IMG/VR virus record: IMGVR_UViG_2671180606_000004
Coordinates: 1 to 11,722 of that record
DNA length: 11,722 bases
DNA from: a virus
Lineage: Duplodnaviria; Heunggongvirae; Uroviricota; Caudoviricetes
Strand: one strand, 5' to 3'
Notes under the pieces: generated by a model
What the model was told of the DNA's origin: nothing
Seen by the model: only the letters and a program-made list of their open reading frames with translations
Database searches by the model: none
Part shown: positions 2,212 to 11,722 of the stretch, piece by piece
How positions within the stretch are numbered: the stretch's first letter is position 1
Layout: each line of letters begins with the position of its first letter
Position numbers and translations under genes: made by a program

Positions 2212-2748
2212 TTACGCCAGTTGTACGGAAACGAACTCATCAGGGTCAGCCAGCAGCATCAGCGGTGCTGACTGAATCATGGTGAACTCACGCGCCGGAT
2301 CGCCGGTGGTCACCCAGTTTTTCGGGTAACGGGCAGAGGCGTTAATGCCTTCGCGCTGTGCGTCCGCATCCTGAATGCAGCCATAGGTGCGCAGACCGCG
2401 AGCCTGAGTGTTCCCCAGCACCATCGTGTTGTCCGGCAGGAAGTTCTTTTTGACGCCGTTTTCCACGTACTGTCCGGAATACACGACGATGGCCACATCG
2501 CCATACATTCCCTTACCCTGGCGACGCGCCTTACGCGTTAACCAGCCTTCTGCTTCCAGCCGTGCGATAGCCGTTCTGACGGTACTCATCCCCGCGCCAA
2601 TCTGGCGGGCAATGGTTTCAATTGATGGCCAGCACACACCTTCGTCATTACTGAAATCAGCCAGGCGGGCCATAATTGCCACGCTGGATAATTTCATGCC
2701 TGACGCAGCGCAACCATCCCATACATAGCCGGTTAATTTAGTGCTCAT
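2212..2748 (-). CDS. Chimeric ORF: N-terminal ~78 aa winged-helix/HTH domain (HTH_36-like, as in phage replication-initiator proteins) fused in frame to the C-terminal ~100 aa of lambda major capsid protein E (E-derived part about 2212..2511)
   Basis: Residues from about 81 (MYGDVAIVVYSGQYVENGVKKNFLPDNTMVLGNTQARGLRTYGCIQDADAQREGINASARYPKNWVTTGDPAREFTMIQSAPLMLLADPDEFVSVQLA) match the lambda gpE C-terminus as recalled. Residues 1-78 (…SSVAIMARLADFSNDEGVCWPSIETIARQIGAGMSTVRTAIARLEAEGWLTRKARRQ) resemble the N-terminal DNA-binding domain of phage replication initiators. Lambda gpE is 341 aa, so its N-terminal ~240 aa are missing. Confidence 0.8.
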   Translation of the reverse strand: MSTKLTGYVWDGCAASGMKLSSVAIMARLADFSNDEGVCWPSIETIARQIGAGMSTVRTAIARLEAEGWLTRKARRQGKGMYGDVAIVVYSGQYVENGVKKNFLPDNTMVLGNTQARGLRTYGCIQDADAQREGINASARYPKNWVTTGDPAREFTMIQSAPLMLLADPDEFVSVQLA

Positions 2749-2757
2749 GACCGACCT

Positions 2758-3096
2758 CTATTTCCCTGAATTTACGACGAAACTGTTCGAGCGGGCTGAA
2801 GCACTCATGCTCATAGCCCTCGCGGAGGTAGATAACCCGTTGTGTTTCCGGCTCCCAACGAATGACTCTGACGGGCACTCCGTAGTGATCTTTGAACCAG
2901 CGGTTAACTTGTCGCAAAGGACTGTCTCCTTCTGCCGGTTGAAATCACCCACAGCCCACTCTGCAAAGCTGTGGGTTACAATTTCCCTGTCACCTGGTAC
3001 ATTCACTGCATAGCAATATTCCACCTTCGCTTTTCCACCCGGTACAGGAAGCGCAATCAGTTGCGAGCGACGGTAGTGTGTTGTTAAACTGTTCAT
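2758..3096 (-). CDS. Hypothetical early-operon protein; possibly frame-disrupted (C-terminal part may continue in the -1 frame to a stop at 2738-2740)
   Basis: ATG at 3096 overlaps the stop of the upstream cII-like gene (ATGA coupling). The N-terminal 50 aa look protein-like; the annotated frame ends in low-complexity sequence ([16 protein letters not shown]), while the -1 frame from about 2944 reads a convincing peptide (…[61 protein letters not shown]) whose stop overlaps the ATG of the next gene. Confidence 0.45.
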
Positions 3097-3701
3097 GCGT
3101 TAGTTTCTCCACAGTCACGACACGCCACGGCGCCCGGAGCTGCACACTCGCGGGCGTCATTACTTTCTGAAATGCAAAAAATTTTGTAGACCAGTGCTGC
3201 ATGCTCCTGCAGCTTCGAAATTGAGAGGTAGAGCTCGTCATTAATTGCTGTCTTCTCATGCGGTTCCACTACACCGTCTTCGATTGCTGAACGAATCTGT
3301 TTTGAATAACTGCCGATCTGTTCAATGACTTCCAGCAGACGCTGGTTAATATCGGCGTTGTCCACATCCTCGACGTCAGGAAGAGACACAAAGACGCCAT
3401 TTGCAGACTGCGCCACAGCATCAGCAATGAAGTGAGTTCCACCAGCACGTTGCAAAATCATTGCCCATCCCAGCGGGAAAATCTGATCGCCATCGGCACG
3501 AAGGCGGTTAAATAATGCGTTCTCTGTTACATCCAGCCAGTCAGCAGCTTCAGCGTAACCCCCCGGCAACGCTGCGATAGTTTTTCTGACAGCTTTCACG
3601 TACCACTCAGGCTGTTTTTCTACTTTCCAGTGATGCTTACCCACGGTTAGCCTCATCGTTCTGTGGTTTCTGTTAATCGATTTATCCATTAGATTTTTCA
3701 T
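3093..3701 (-). CDS. Early regulatory protein in the cII position (CII/CP76-like or YdaT-like; family uncertain), about 202 aa
   Basis: ORF immediately downstream of the cro-like gene in the same operon. Start set at ATG 3701 (or 3689) rather than the track start 3758, which would overlap cro by 77 nt. Family assignment is by position and loose resemblance only. Confidence 0.55.
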
Positions 3702-3882
3702 AAAGCTCAGGTTTAAATGGCAACCGTCCGCAAGTTCTATATGCAGCTTCTGCTGCACGTCCTTTTGGAATTAACTGGCCCGGACGGTTTCGCCACTGAT
3801 AAACGGCTTCAGTTGTTATGCCGAAAAAAGCAGCAACTTTCTCAATACTGCCGAAGTAGCTTTCGATATCGTCAGTTGTCAT
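3682..3882 (-). CDS. Cro-like small HTH repressor (Cro/YdaS-type), 66 aa
   Basis: Small ORF divergent from the CI-like repressor; motif …[45 protein letters not shown] typical of Cro/YdaS-family proteins; GGAGGG Shine-Dalgarno upstream. Confidence 0.8.
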   Translation of the reverse strand: MTTDDIESYFGSIEKVAAFFGITTEAVYQWRNRPGQLIPKGRAAEAAYRTCGRLPFKPELYEKSNG

Positions 3883-3979
3883 ACGCCCTCCAAACTAAGT
3901 TTTATTAGATGCTAATTACAAATCTATCTTTGGTCAATAAAAACTAAGATTACTTAGTAATTAAAGAAATGGTGCTCCT
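3883..3979. promoter_or_regulatory. Divergent cI/cro intergenic control region: palindromic operator candidate ACTAAG-ATTA-CTTAGT (3943..3958), inverted repeat ATTAG-N3-CTAAT (3904..3916), two AACTAAG copies, candidate cro promoter on minus strand (-35 TTGACC 3932..3937, -10 TAGCAT 3909..3914)
   Basis: 97-bp AT-rich spacer between divergent repressor genes; perfect 6-4-6 palindrome; sigma70-like hexamers with 17-bp spacing read on the minus strand. Promoter assignment is by eye. Confidence 0.5.
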
Positions 3980-4606
3980 ATGGAAACGGTTGGTCAGCGT
4001 ATAAAAGCTCTGAGAAGAGTTACCAGAACGTCCCAGAAAGAATTGGGTAAATTTTGTGGAGTAAGCGACGTTGCTGTGGGGTACTGGGAGAAAGACATCA
4101 ATACCCCTGGTGGGGAGGCACTTTCGAAATTAGCGAAGTTCTTCAATACGTCAATAGATTACATTCTTTATGGTGCTGAGTTTGAAGGCAAACTCGTCAC
4201 AAACATGCGCAGAGTTCCTGTAATATCGTGGGTTCAGGCTGGGCAGTTTACTGAGTGCAGGGCAGCAGAAGTGTTTAGTGAAGTGGACAAGTGGGTAGAT
4301 ACATCATTAAAGATTGGTGATAACTCATTTGCATTAGAGGTTAAAGGTGACTCCATGACTAACCCTAATGGCCTCCCAACAATACCAGAAGGCGCAACAG
4401 TGATTGTAGATCCAGATGCAGAACCTCGTCATGGAAAAATAGTCATCGCTCGACTTGATGGAACAAACGAAGCTACAGTAAAAAAATTAGTCATCGATGG
4501 CCCTCAAAAGTTTTTAGTGCCATTAAATCCTCGGTATCCCAACATCCCTATCAATGGTAATTGCCTTATCATTGGTGTAGTCAAAGGAGTTCAATACGAA
4601 CTCTAA
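3980..4606 (+). CDS. CI-like prophage repressor: N-terminal XRE-type HTH plus C-terminal S24 (LexA/CI-type) autopeptidase domain, 208 aa
   Basis: HTH motif (QKELGKFCGVSDVAVGYWEKD…), catalytic Ser in GDSM and Lys in KKL with spacing typical of S24 peptidases; divergent from the cro-like gene. Confidence 0.9.
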   Translation: METVGQRIKALRRVTRTSQKELGKFCGVSDVAVGYWEKDINTPGGEALSKLAKFFNTSIDYILYGAEFEGKLVTNMRRVPVISWVQAGQFTECRAAEVFSEVDKWVDTSLKIGDNSFALEVKGDSMTNPNGLPTIPEGATVIVDPDAEPRHGKIVIARLDGTNEATVKKLVIDGPQKFLVPLNPRYPNIPINGNCLIIGVVKGVQYEL

Positions 4607-4690
4607 GACCTCTCTTCTCTAACTAAGGCACCGAACTAAGAAAAGTTTGGTGTTTTCTCTTGCCATAATAACTAAGTTAAGTTAGATTTT
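4607..4690 (+). promoter_or_regulatory. Candidate pL-like promoter/operator region downstream of the repressor gene: three direct AACTAAG repeats (4621, 4634, 4670) and possible -35 TTGCCA (4660..4665) / -10 TAGATT (4683..4688)
   Basis: Same heptamer as in the cI/cro spacer; hexamers with 17-bp spacing on the plus strand, pointing away from cI. By-eye call. Confidence 0.3.
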
Positions 4691-4812
4691 ATGTCAAAGA
4701 TAACGAACAGGCAGGACGCCCACGAAGTAGCCGCCTGGGGCATATGAAGTCCAGGATGATTCGTTGAGTCATGTTGTGCCACTAGGCACTCATGTTAAAG
4801 CAGGTGTATGAA

Positions 4813-5088
4813 ATGAAAGTCCAGATTTTAAACAATAACTGTGAAGTCGTTTGGTCATACGACATAGCCGCCCATGTAGATCAGAGCGGCGATAGCTGGG
4901 CCAATGGGAAACATCAGATTATGGCTGGAGTTGTATTCTCTTTACGCCGTGCTTTAGAACAGGCTGAAGTCTTTCCATCAGACCCTGAATGGAAATGGCC
5001 TTTTTCTATTTGTCCAAATTCGGAGAGTACATTTCAGAAAATTGGTCAGAAAGTCGCACTCGAAGAGCATCAGCCAACTGTTTCCTGA
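4813..5088 (+). CDS. Hypothetical protein, 91 aa (first ORF downstream of the repressor, N position of a lambdoid map; no N-like Arg-rich motif)
   Basis: ORF with AGGTG Shine-Dalgarno 7 nt upstream of ATG 4813 (track start 4792 lacks one). Its 3' end is overlapped by an equally plausible antisense frame (5006..5263, minus), so the call is uncertain. Confidence 0.4.
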   Translation: MKVQILNNNCEVVWSYDIAAHVDQSGDSWANGKHQIMAGVVFSLRRALEQAEVFPSDPEWKWPFSICPNSESTFQKIGQKVALEEHQPTVS

Positions 5089-5504
5089 TTTTTTCAGGTA
5101 ACTCGTCGGCATCGCAGAAACAACAACGCTCGATCATGTTGAAAGCCGATTCGTAGAACTGTTTTTGCTGAGTGTCGCTGAGACAGGAAAAGAGCGACGT
5201 TACGATGATTTTATTAATTGCATTATCAAGTTCTTTTTCATCAAAAGTTATTTGATTTTCCTTTTATGTATACGGGCTTAAAAGGATACCACCGAGCCTG
5301 AAGTGGTGAAAAGACAGGCACATAACAGCTAAGTATTTTCAACCAGAGAGAATCCTTAGCGTTGTGGTGAATGCGGCTCAGCGCACGCGGGTTAAGGTTG
5401 AGGCTGACAGTCGACCTTCTGTGGATACCCACCCGCCTGGTGTGCAACCTTCGCCAGGCACCGGGAGGCACCCGGCACCACAACTTTATGCTGTGTGTAG
5501 TCCT

Positions 5505-9451: not shown

Positions 9452-9473
9452 TAAGTGCGCGTTAGCGCACTTA
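9452..9473. terminator. Perfect inverted repeat TAAGTGCGC-GTTA-GCGCACTTA between convergent int and the AT-rich operon; candidate bidirectional terminator
   Basis: 9-bp perfect stem with 4-nt loop in the 23-bp gap between convergent stops; the stop codon of the 265-aa gene lies in the 3' arm; T-rich flank on the plus side. Confidence 0.4.
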
Positions 9474-10268
9474 TTCAAATAGTTCAGGGAATACTAATTG
9501 TAGTGAATTCATGAATTTATCAATATCTTCAGGAGGTTCTTGCTCACGAAACCACTTGTCACACACTTCATTGACATAAATTTTCGCTTGTCCGACCTTC
9601 AAGGATTTATTCTCTCGTCCACTTTTATCAGCAGGGTTATAGTGCAAACTTAAAATAAAATTTCTAACCTTTACTTCTTTTCCCTTTTTTGAAACTATAT
9701 TGTAGTCAAAATAACATTCATCACCGGTAAACGCATTTGCTATGGGGCTCTTTTTAAAATGATATCGGCACTCATCAAGCCTATCAGAAATAGCCTTATA
9801 TTTTTCAAAATCACCAGAGCTAAGGTAGCTGAACCAATTTTTAAAGTAACTTAATGAATCAAGTTTCTGATGGTAAATAAAGAAACCTGCATGTTTCTCA
9901 TCAGAAATATATCTTGTTACTAACTGTAACATGCCTTCAAAGACACCATTATACGAATTCCCTCTTTTTGCTTCAGCGAGCCAAGTAAAGCTCTGATCAC
10001 GATCCTGAACTGTAATATCGACGGAACCATTAGATTTTGTTTGTTCAGATGCGTTGTACCCAACACCTTTGAGAAATAAAACCAGTAAATTAGTGATCTT
10101 ATCTTCATCATCTGAATAATATTTATCCGCAGTCTTCTCAATATGCTTAATTGCATTATTTATATCGGCATATAGACTTTGTACAAACACATCCTCATCG
10201 AATGGCTTCAAGTTTACCAGCGCGGCTAATTCGGCAGGTGTTATATTTTGAAGAAAATTATTTGACAT
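9471..10268 (-). CDS. Hypothetical protein, 265 aa, third gene of the AT-rich operon; possible PD-(D/E)xK nuclease-like core (…GSVDITVQD…FTWLAEAKRG…)
   Basis: Long ORF in a visibly AT-rich segment; ATG overlaps the stop of the upstream gene by 11 nt. The D…E-x-K spacing is the only motif recognised and is an inference. Confidence 0.7.
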   Translation of the reverse strand: MSNNFLQNITPAELAALVNLKPFDEDVFVQSLYADINNAIKHIEKTADKYYSDDEDKITNLLVLFLKGVGYNASEQTKSNGSVDITVQDRDQSFTWLAEAKRGNSYNGVFEGMLQLVTRYISDEKHAGFFIYHQKLDSLSYFKNWFSYLSSGDFEKYKAISDRLDECRYHFKKSPIANAFTGDECYFDYNIVSKKGKEVKVRNFILSLHYNPADKSGRENKSLKVGQAKIYVNEVCDKWFREQEPPEDIDKFMNSLQLVFPELFE

Positions 10269-10689
10269 TTAATATACAGTAAAAAGAAATGTTATTAACA
10301 TCGAAATCATCTATTTCGCGCCCAGACAATAAACTGATCGGAGAAATATCACAAATCAGAGCATTATAGTAGCATTCTGCTGAAATAGGGATTTCTTCAC
10401 CATCAAAATCATAATAGCAATAAGTTATATTAAATAATTTAGAATGTGCACCACAAAAATAACGGACTAACTTTAGCAAATCCGAGTCCGATTCACAGCC
10501 TGCCGCTTGCCTTAATACATTAATCGGGTAATAATTTTTATCATAATTATTTTGAATGAAATCCAAAACATTATTGAATAGAAAGATATCTTCTTCAGGA
10601 AAGATATCTTTCATTTCATCCAATAATATCCTTTGTTCAGACAAAAGCATCATTATGACCTTGATTCTATCATTTTCGTGAGATGACAT
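10258..10689 (-). CDS. Hypothetical protein, about 143 aa, middle gene of the AT-rich operon
   Basis: ORF overlapping both neighbours (about 20 nt upstream, 11 nt downstream), suggesting translational coupling; start taken at ATG 10689 (track start 10695 is TTG). No family recognised. Confidence 0.65.
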   Translation of the reverse strand: MSSHENDRIKVIMMLLSEQRILLDEMKDIFPEEDIFLFNNVLDFIQNNYDKNYYPINVLRQAAGCESDSDLLKLVRYFCGAHSKLFNITYCYYDFDGEEIPISAECYYNALICDISPISLLSGREIDDFDVNNISFYCILNVK

Positions 10690-11722
10690 TTTCAATTAAA
10701 CCATTTAATGAGATTGTATCTTCAGGAAAATCAACATAAAATTCGCCACAAAAATTATCATCCAACCAAGATTTCTTATTTGGATCTAGACCCAATTCTG
10801 TAAAGTCACCATTATTTCTGTAAAATCTTACGGCTACAGCACGTGGTGTATAAATATCATTTCTTTTCTTATTAGTAATCTCGACATCTCGAGCTTCATA
10901 TGTCGGATCTTTGCGGCCAATGACATTAGCATCACAACCTGTATTAGAACCAACATAAATTATCTGAACTGCTTTCCCGAACGATCTATCAGTAATAATG
11001 CTATTGATCACATTATAAAAATTCAATTGTTTGAAATGAATAGTATTATTAGTACTGATGAGCATATCAAAAAATTTATTACGCACCGATGCAAGCGCTT
11101 TTGCTGTCTCCCGTTTCCCTAAATTTTTTGGAAGACGATACTCGATCCTATTTTTATTATGGGGAACAAATACTGTTATAAATTGTTGCTGTGGGGTATA
11201 CGATAGTCCTAAACCGCGACTTCCCTTAATCTTAACACTATAAACATATGAGAAAATAAAAGCAAAGCCATCGCCAGTATCAATTAATTTAGTCAGATAA
11301 AGACCTTTGATATTGTTCCCAAGTGAATTACCATCATATAACTTTCTTGGATAAGAATTTTCATACCTTGAATCAGTTACACTTGTACTAAAAACATGTT
11401 GGATCACACTTTGGAAATTTGGGTCTTGTGTTTCGTCAATAGAATAATAGTGACTACCAGAGATTATTATTCTATCGATCATTTTCTCAAGTGAATTTAA
11501 TGTAGCATTAGGAAATGCAGCTGTTGGATTCTGTATAGATGCCTCGATTGCCTTCAAAACCGCATCCATTCCACCTTTAACAGGTGGAAATCCATACACA
11601 GTTGCTATCTGAGAAATAAATGAATATAGATTGGTCTGCTCAAGCGCAGTAATCAAATCAGATAATACTTGTTGACTATTGTTGGCAACAACAGGCGTAG
11701 CAAATGCGCTAGATGAATTCAT
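10670..11722 (-). CDS. Hypothetical protein, at least 350 aa, first gene of the AT-rich operon; the ATG coincides with the last 3 nt of the window, so the true start and promoter may lie beyond the window
   Basis: Uninterrupted 350-codon frame in an AT-rich segment; no Walker or other catalytic motif recognised by eye. Confidence 0.7.
   Translation of the reverse strand: MNSSSAFATPVVANNSQQVLSDLITALEQTNLYSFISQIATVYGFPPVKGGMDAVLKAIEASIQNPTAAFPNATLNSLEKMIDRIIISGSHYYSIDETQDPNFQSVIQHVFSTSVTDSRYENSYPRKLYDGNSLGNNIKGLYLTKLIDTGDGFAFIFSYVYSVKIKGSRGLGLSYTPQQQFITVFVPHNKNRIEYRLPKNLGKRETAKALASVRNKFFDMLISTNNTIHFKQLNFYNVINSIITDRSFGKAVQIIYVGSNTGCDANVIGRKDPTYEARDVEITNKKRNDIYTPRAVAVRFYRNNGDFTELGLDPNKKSWLDDNFCGEFYVDFPEDTISLNGLIENVISRK

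Follow-up and report, generated by a model that had tools for sequence, protein, structure and literature searches.

Probable 18-bp operators built on an AACTAAG half-site flank the cI-like repressor gene of a P22-like immunity cassette

The heptamer AACTAAG recurs on both sides of a cI-like repressor gene in this viral DNA, which raises the question of whether the copies are the operators of a phage immunity switch and, if so, which protein reads them. Within the window, meaning the whole 11,722-bp stretch of DNA that was analysed, copies start at positions 3893, 3942, 4621, 4634 and 4670, all on the plus strand, with no other copies present. The preliminary description had placed five copies far from chance, and both the recounted positions and the controls agree: none of 20,000 dinucleotide shuffles of 3892-4676 contained at least five copies on either strand, and a first-order Markov model gave an expectation of 0.12 for the plus strand of this interval (41% G+C). 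The earlier figure of about 0.05 per 800 bp was of the right order, being the one-strand value for uniform composition. Shuffling of the whole window gave an expectation of 1.15 copies, with at least five in 1 of 200 shuffles. The excess survives a multiple-testing view as well, because only 34 of 2000 shuffles (1.7%) showed any 7-mer at least five times.

The genes of the surrounding module are as follows:

3980..4606, plus strand: cI-like repressor of 208 aa, with a Pfam HTH_3 N-domain and a Peptidase_S24 self-cleaving C-domain
3682..3882, minus strand: cro-like gene of 66 aa (Pfam P22_Cro, E 4.4e-11, 42.8 bits against a cut-off of 30.2)
3093-3656, minus strand: CII-family protein (Pfam Phage_CP76)
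Downstream of cI, plus strand: an SfV orf33-like ORF, a DUF2303/YfdQ protein, an HD hydrolase, a DUF4224 protein that is probably xis, and int

The closest solved relative of the repressor N-domain is the P22 c2 N-terminal domain (phmmer against the PDB: 3jxb/2r1j/1adr, E 4.4e-11, residues 3-65). When the C-domain is aligned with that of lambda cI (E 7e-28), the Ala-Gly site, GDSM serine and KK lysine all coincide, and since these features are conserved the repressor should be cleavable on SOS induction. The cro-like gene is the first gene of the rightward-equivalent early operon, and in most related loci it is conserved together with the operators. Beyond int, PADLOC and Pfam searches of the ORFs found nothing.

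The preliminary description had also spoken of asymmetric direct repeats, a description that does not hold functionally, as four of the five heptamers are the left halves of 18-bp inverted repeats. The full design, AACTAAG-N4-CTTAGTT, is two-fold symmetric, and its strict core CTAA-N6-TTAG is matched three times in the window, with a one-mismatch version at a fourth place:

3895: strict match, CTAAGTTTTATTAG
3944: strict match, CTAAGATTACTTAG
4672: strict match, CTAAGTTAAGTTAG
4636: one-mismatch version, CTAAGAAAAGTTTG

With two flanking bases on each side, these matches become 18-mers of the form AACTAAG-N4-CTTAGNN. At least three strict matches were reached in none of 20,000 dinucleotide shuffles. 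The sequence ACTAAGATTACTTAGT at 3943-3958, earlier described as a perfect 16-bp palindrome, was read correctly but is self-complementary at only 12 of its 16 positions: its two 6-bp arms are perfect inverted copies of each other, but the 4 bp between them, ATTA, are not palindromic.

The 97-bp spacer between cro and cI contains three candidate operators, which, like those downstream of cI, are named OR and OL by analogy, and a predicted promoter for cro:

3893-3910: OR1, 18-mer AACTAAGTTTTATTAGAT, core CTAAG-N4-ATTAG at 3895-3908, a strict pattern match
3917-3934: putative OR2, 18-mer TACAAATCTATCTTTGGT, core CAAAT-N4-CTTTG at 3919-3932, degenerate
3942-3959: OR3, 18-mer AACTAAGATTACTTAGTA, with perfect 6-bp arms
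3937..3909, minus strand: PR-like promoter for cro, -35 TTGACC (3937-3932), 17-bp spacer, -10 TAGCAT (3914-3909)

The site at 3917-3934 had been overlooked in the earlier reading. The centres of OR1, OR2 and OR3 lie at 3901.5, 3925.5 and 3950.5, and are 24 and 25 bp apart. All sites were scored with a position weight matrix (PWM) built from 36 distinct sites in loci other than the window, taken from other genera only, and the top four hits in the window were OL1 (24.9 bits), OR1 (22.5 bits), OR3 (21.7 bits) and OL2 (13.3 bits). The PR-like promoter, a prediction of the consensus scan, matches the consensus at 9 of 12 positions and both of its hexamers are conserved across genera. OR1 adjoins the -10 and spans the expected start site, OR2 fills the promoter spacer and touches the -35, and OR3, the most conserved block of the cro/cI spacer, lies 6 bp upstream of the -35. 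OR3 also covers either candidate -10 for cI, TAAGAT at 3945-3950 or TAGTAA at 3955-3960, both of which are weak and indistinguishable; the consensus scan found no consensus-grade promoter for cI in the spacer, and the cI promoter and its activation are conjectural. The best-formed site is OR3, next to cI, which is not the intrinsic affinity order of lambda if symmetry predicts affinity.

In the window, OR2 scores 3.2 bits and ranks 7th of 11,705 positions. The arrangement was examined in 17 loci, comprising 16 OR regions and an upstream duplicate pair in one of the related genomes (L020), and in all of them OR1 and OR3 are 49 bp apart and the best middle site falls at exactly +24 bp from OR1, ranking 5th to 10th in 15 of the 17. 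The middle site has a negative score in five loci and is a full CTAA-N6-TTAG match in two Rahnella loci (L014 and L027). Because of the invariant +24 spacing and the full match in Rahnella, 3917-3934 is counted as a weak, putative OR2. Its right half, CTTTGG, shares bases with GGTCAA (the PR -35 as seen on the opposite strand) and is under double constraint there.

Downstream of cI, two further candidate operators coincide with a promoter and a hairpin:

4634-4651: OL2, 18-mer AACTAAGAAAAGTTTGGT, core CTAAG-N4-GTTTG at 4636-4649
4670-4687: OL1, 18-mer AACTAAGTTAAGTTAGAT, core at 4672-4685
4660..4688, plus strand: PL-like promoter, -35 TTGCCA (4660-4665), 17-bp spacer, -10 TAGATT (4683-4688)
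4625..4656, plus strand: cI terminator hairpin from RNA folding, 13-bp stem, loop AAGAAA, then CUCUU

The outward promoter that had been suggested to overlap the downstream cluster is accordingly present as TTGCCA-17-TAGATT at 4660..4688 on the plus strand, a predicted promoter that reads away from cI towards yfdP/yfdQ, xis and int, and appears in relatives as TTGAC(C/A)-17-TAGATT. OL1 occupies its spacer, with the last bases of the site forming part of the -10. A sigma-70 consensus scan of 3600-4900 gave three promoter-like sites, two of which, PR and PL, lie exactly at the operators. OL2 sits 36 bp upstream of OL1 within the cI terminator hairpin, and its right half, GTTTGGTG, is the descending stem of the terminator, again a position under double constraint. 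In Yersinia proxima, Providencia and Proteus, OL2 is a full-pattern site whose two halves pair in the RNA, and its CTAAG is kept even where it is located in the hairpin loop. From these comparisons, an operator function for OL2 is probable.

The copy at 4621-4627 (plus strand) was considered as a possible 'OL3' and rejected, as it has no right half-site and its 18-mer overlaps OL2 by 5 bp. It falls outside the top 12 PWM hits and is unconserved, reading AACCAAA in mEp460 and being absent in LLS, and is probably not an operator. In the RNA fold, the U-run at the foot of the cI terminator stem is paired with the AAG of this copy. Four of the five copies thus lie in operator-like sites, the exception being the one at 4621, with neither a partner half nor conservation.

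The double constraints at OR2 and OL2 allow a reading in which only OR1, OR3 and OL1 are real operators, the repressor bridges OR1 and OR3 (49 bp) across PR, and OR2 and OL2 are look-alikes arising from the -35 and the terminator stem. The low OR2 score in the window, the negative scores in five loci, the overlap of CTTTGG with GGTCAA and the identity of the OL2 right half with the descending stem are all consistent with it. However, this reading is unlikely given that the middle site is found at +24 in 17 of 17 loci and is a full match in Rahnella, that OL2 is the fourth-best hit in each whole phage genome scanned and matches the full pattern in Yersinia proxima, Providencia and Proteus, that the CTAAG of OL2 is conserved despite its position in the hairpin loop, and that P22 has sites at equivalent positions.

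The motif was then counted beyond the window. CTAA-N6-TTAG has exactly three matches per genome in mEp460 (42.9 kb), LLS (42.9 kb) and vB_EcoM-689R6 (43.5 kb) alike, two of them in the cro/cI spacer and the third just downstream of cI, with no match elsewhere. The preliminary description had made its own reading depend on the motif not being equally frequent in the rest of the genome, and in these three whole genomes the matches are confined to the immunity region. The four sites OL1, OR1, OR3 and OL2 also take the top four PWM ranks in all three, with OL1 the best hit and OL2 the fourth. Scattered PWM hits of 5.0-10.3 bits in the whole phage genomes were treated as background, as were two weaker hits of the window itself, at 10764-10781 (8.8 bits) and 10948-10965 (6.9 bits), which lie in a cargo region of 32% G+C.

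Repressor homologues of 63-90% identity were found in Enterobacter, Kosakonia, Kluyvera, Serratia, Rahnella, Yersinia, Rouxiella, Providencia and Proteus, in a scan of one genome per species, and all of them retain the recognition helix GVSDV(A/S/T)VGYWEKD. Across 23 loci (the window, two phages and 20 genomes from the nine genera), the strict matches fall, with few exceptions, some 79 and 30 bp ahead of the repressor start or about 25-116 bp from its stop. The exceptions are additional copies at three loci (L019, L020 and L030), located further upstream. Two of these, L020 and L030, have a duplicated 49-bp pair about 500 bp upstream, in DNA that is non-coding where it was read (L030), and L020 has no proximal match at about 30 bp. 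Ungapped footprints of the OR region in 19 distinct sequences, all with OR1 in register, are conserved only at the OR1 halves, the -10 hexamer, the degenerate middle site, GGTCAA and OR3, with the cI leader unconserved. The OL side gives the same picture, with conserved blocks only at the sites and promoter hexamers.

These comparisons bear directly on the simplest explanation, that the repeats serve no binding function and arise incidentally from A+T-richness between genes, from promoter hexamers and from a terminator hairpin. The intergenic stretches are indeed A+T-rich, the TAG of a right half-site forms part of the PL -10, one copy lies in a hairpin and the copy at 4621 looks non-functional. 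Yet no shuffle in 20,000 reached five heptamers or three CTAA-N6-TTAG matches, the pattern is found nowhere else in three 43-kb genomes, and the sites stay in register across nine genera while their flanks diverge. The comparative data effectively refute this explanation, and the probability left to it is close to nil.

The distribution of the cassette links the sites to the repressor gene. The immunity segment is 100% identical to that of the Escherichia phage vB_EcoS-569R4, 95% identical to that of mEp460 and 77% identical to that of phage LLS, and the cassette occurs in these active temperate phages and in 517 of 5426 complete E. coli genomes (about 9.5%). SfV shares both flanks (about 99% identity) but has a different cI/cro pair with operators TGTAC-N7-RTACA; its homology stops near 3669 on the left and resumes at 4691, 3 bp after the PL -10. 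Because this exchange, from about 3669 to 4690, encloses all five sites, all five travel with the repressor gene. A Q antiterminator takes the place of cro as the divergent gene in the Rouxiella and Serratia aquatilis loci, and the operator pair is retained there. Since the sites persist where Q replaces cro, they track the repressor.

More distant homologues (41-46% identity) have other recognition helices and other half-sites within the same layout, and three classes can be distinguished:

Window group: helix GVSDVAVGYWEKD, half-sites AACTAAG-N4-CTTAGT
Photorhabdus/Xenorhabdus: helix GVSHVAISQWEKE, close to the GVSNVAISQWERS of P22, half-sites TTTAAG-N4-CTTAAA
Morganella/Proteus: helix GVNRVTVTGWEKG, half-sites TGTAAG-N4-CCTACA

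The inner TAAG and a conserved valine are common to the three classes, which differ at the outer positions of the half-site and at helix residues 32, 36 and 37. The half-site covaries with the recognition helix, a pattern that, with only three specificity classes, is supportive rather than conclusive. Compared with the P22 c2 helix, the window repressor keeps Val33 and has the changes N32D, I35V, S36G and Q37Y.

Taken together, the heptamer is very probably the outer half-site of 18-bp operators that flank cI in a P22-like switch, with a dimer of the cI-like repressor the most likely ligand. The preliminary description had instead offered a cII-type protein as one possible reader of the repeats, and the same orientation of the five copies and the CII-family gene next door (Pfam Phage_CP76, 3093-3656) would fit direct-repeat sites for such an activator. 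Lambda CII binds TTGC-N6-TTGC at the promoters that it activates; sites of this type are direct repeats one helical turn apart on either side of the -35, and the promoter is directed to cI or int. Here, however, the heptamers are spaced by 49, 13 and 36 bp rather than one helical turn; they lie on PR and PL rather than on a promoter that is situated in or past cro and fires at cI; all but one are halves of inverted repeats; sites persist beside Q, where no cro/cII adjoins; and the half-site changes with the repressor recognition helix. A CII-like activator as the reader of these sites is accordingly very improbable.

The operators of P22 provide the closest model for binding by the cI-like repressor. 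Six natural 18-bp c2 operators are known, with the consensus ATTTAAGATATCTTAAAT, and c2 contacts their outer halves whereas the central four bp face the protein uncontacted (PMC5175364, PMC4267663). The window shares with P22 a homologous repressor N-domain, a Cro of the P22_Cro family, and 18-bp operators with 7-bp outer halves ending in TAAG, four variable central bp and a symmetry axis between base pairs. In the 36 sites of the PWM, core positions 3-6 and 13-16 are fixed by selection on CTAA-N6-TTAG and information is comparable only at the free positions, where it amounts to 0.93 bits at the outermost positions 1/18 versus 0.47-0.76 bits at positions 7-12. The OR regions are tripartite in both phages with a spacing of 23-25 bp, the P22 centres being 23 and 25 bp apart in our own reading of its sequence. 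By the same reading, PL of P22 is TTGACC-ATTT-[AATTAAGAAGTCTTAAAT]-T with a further site 35 bp upstream, and PL of the window is TTGCCA-TAAT-[AACTAAGTTAAGTTAGAT]-T with OL2 36 bp upstream. In each, OL1 begins 4 bp after the -35 and its end forms the -10, so that the geometries match almost base for base. The named set of P22 immC comprises the c2 repressor, Cro, OR1-3 and OL1-3.

The two cassettes also differ. The half-site is AACTAAG here and ATTTAAG in P22, whose own sites read ATTAAAG, ATTTAAG or ACTAAAG, and the ATTTAAG expected of a homoimmune relative is not what the window carries. Because both the half-site and the recognition helix differ, the window cassette and P22 should be heteroimmune. 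The cI start lies 20 bp beyond OR3 here, whereas the P22 c2 ATG abuts OR3; the cI terminator overlaps OL2 here, whereas in P22 c2 is followed directly by a separate hairpin, rich in GC; and the C-domain is closer to that of lambda cI among solved structures.

Like lambda, the window has cI and cro in divergent orientation, three OR sites placed about every 24 bp across PR and PRM and, past the end of the cI operon and on the same strand, OL sites covering PL; the S24 self-cleaving C-domain likewise keeps the cleavage site and the catalytic Ser and Lys. Imperfect inverted repeats with a common half-site at this spacing, about 2.3 helical turns, overlapping PR and PL and confined to the immunity region, are what characterizes a lambdoid OR/OL set. 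The lambda operators, in contrast, are 17 bp long with an axis through a base pair and unrelated sequences, and lambda Cro has another fold; OL and OR are about 0.75 kb apart here versus 2.4 kb in lambda, and OL1 and OL2 36 bp versus 24 bp. The gene order of SfV is the same, and its record marks a 'putative operator region' and a terminator at equivalent places, but with its other cI/cro pair and operators, SfV shows the window to be an alternative immunity cassette, swapped from about 3669 to 4690. The operators also resemble those of phage 434 in having a 14-bp core with four conserved outer bp per side and a variable, uncontacted centre, read by an HTH_3 (Xre-type) repressor. The 434 sequence, ACAA-N6-TTGT, is unlike the one found here, and 434 repressor was absent among the PDB hits for the N-domain at E<=0.01.

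The call of the cI terminator is based on RNA folding (-15.1 kcal/mol, z -2.5) and on compensatory changes in relatives, where a hairpin is found at the same place with, for example, CACCGAAC/GTTTGGTG replaced by CATCAAAC/GTTTGATG and z-scores down to -6. The SfV record has a terminator annotated at the equivalent position, and a consensus terminator scanner did not list the cI terminator. Since nothing in the whole window matched Rfam at its gathering thresholds, no known RNA family accounts for the conserved PL leader or the hairpin. The overlap with OL2 raises the tentative idea, put forward here as possible but doubtful, that this palindrome is dual-coded, serving as a repressor operator in the DNA and as the top of the cI intrinsic terminator in the RNA, so that repressor bound there could both help OL1 to shut PL and back up termination as a roadblock. 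If so, OL2-bound repressor would keep transcription begun at the cI promoter from running on into the early leftward operon.

The layout first proposed, with OR-type sites between cI and cro and OL-type sites beyond cI, is supported by the sites, their spacing and the P22-like geometry, and allows a mechanism to be outlined. In a lysogen, the repressor, whose binding to the OR and OL sites is predicted from their sequence and context, would occupy OR1/OR2 and OL1/OL2 and keep PR and PL off. Occupancy of OR3, which lies over the weak cI promoter, would cap the repressor's own synthesis. Repression would end when the S24 domain cleaves itself under RecA stimulation, after which Cro, by analogy a likely user of the same sites in addition to the repressor rather than in its place, would take over the operators. 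For this scheme we infer an order of occupancy, cooperativity and activation of the cI promoter.

Among the papers that could be searched by operator sequence, none printing these sites was found. Hall et al. 2005 reportedly compiled many Cro/OR half-sites. No description of this immunity type was found in the literature on mEp460, the SfV operators or ymfK/e14, and no operators are annotated for this cassette in the phage and E. coli records examined. The cassette is a heteroimmune relative of the P22-type switch, an ordinary lambda/P22-style switch of a well-known kind, and the understanding of how such switches work is unchanged by the finding. What the finding adds is a concrete operator sequence and a five-site map for this immunity cassette, which may be used to predict homoimmune prophages. 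The pair may also be a candidate for an orthogonal repressor/operator system, and offers a naturally occurring variant in which to examine the reading of the outer half-site by P22-type repressors. If the assignment is true, the D32/G36/Y37 helix with the AAC outer half-site would represent a defined new specificity in the P22 c2 recognition series.

The immunity cassette (window 3683-4700) comprises the cI-like repressor gene, the divergent cro-like gene and their flanking operator sites. Of 5426 complete E. coli genomes, 513 carried it at 95% identity or more, and 517 did so when matches of any identity were counted. In every carrier the cassette was located on the chromosome.

To the left of the cassette, the window carries lambda-like head and tail genes with 97% identity to mEp332 and 2G7b. 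Fused to these at approximately position 2513 is a piece of a replication O gene of the SfV/e14 type, namely its N-terminal HTH_36 part, and the ORF spanning this point is therefore a chimera.

82-2515: lambda-like head and tail genes (end of E, then FI, FII, Z, U and V)
2212-2748, minus strand: chimeric ORF, HTH_36 with the last ~100 aa of the major capsid protein E

The lambda-like head/tail half and the HTH_36 half were found together in no complete E. coli genome. The junction either arose as an assembly chimera or is what remains after a deletion or recombination, in which case the prophage is defective but has kept its immunity region intact.

The opposite end of the window is occupied by three ORFs directly past the integrase gene.

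9471-11722, minus strand: three ORFs of 265, 145 and 350 aa

The G+C content of this segment is 32-35%, against 43-58% across the remaining window, and neither Pfam nor PADLOC returned a match for any of the three ORFs. The segment looks like a cargo island of unassigned function at the prophage end.

The predicted transcript from PL, the putative rightward promoter leading away from cI, carries CAGGCAGGACGCC in its initial part (window 4700-4730). The same element was found again in several genera (L087 1199-1212, and the downstream regions of L011, L012 and L018), and the PL leader of P22 contains the similar CAGCAGGACGCTGG. CAGGCAGGACGCC is a conserved early-leader element, for which Rfam gave no match; it is perhaps nut- or processing-related. 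Further along, a long, apparently non-coding, hairpin-rich stretch separates the first PL-proximal ORF from yfdP (5241-5370; for example CCACCGAGCCTGAAGTGGTG), and a comparable stretch is present in phage LLS (L004 2470-3005; for example CCACCGCGCCTGATGTGGTT). In SfV-type phages, a transcription-termination-based immunity element has been reported somewhere in this early-left region.

In five loci that encode repressor homologues, the DNA some 200-600 bp upstream of the homologue's gene was inspected. Three of these loci, L013, L017 and L030, from Rouxiella and Serratia aquatilis, lack cro, and the gene divergent from the repressor there encodes a Phage_antitermQ protein; no P22-type cro was found upstream of the repressor in L016 or L019. 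Despite the missing cro, the Rouxiella and Serratia aquatilis loci retain the 49-bp operator pair (OR1 and OR3). In L030, and also in L020, the pair is present a second time about 500 bp upstream. The loci with Q in place of cro represent the same repressor/operator module, wired differently.
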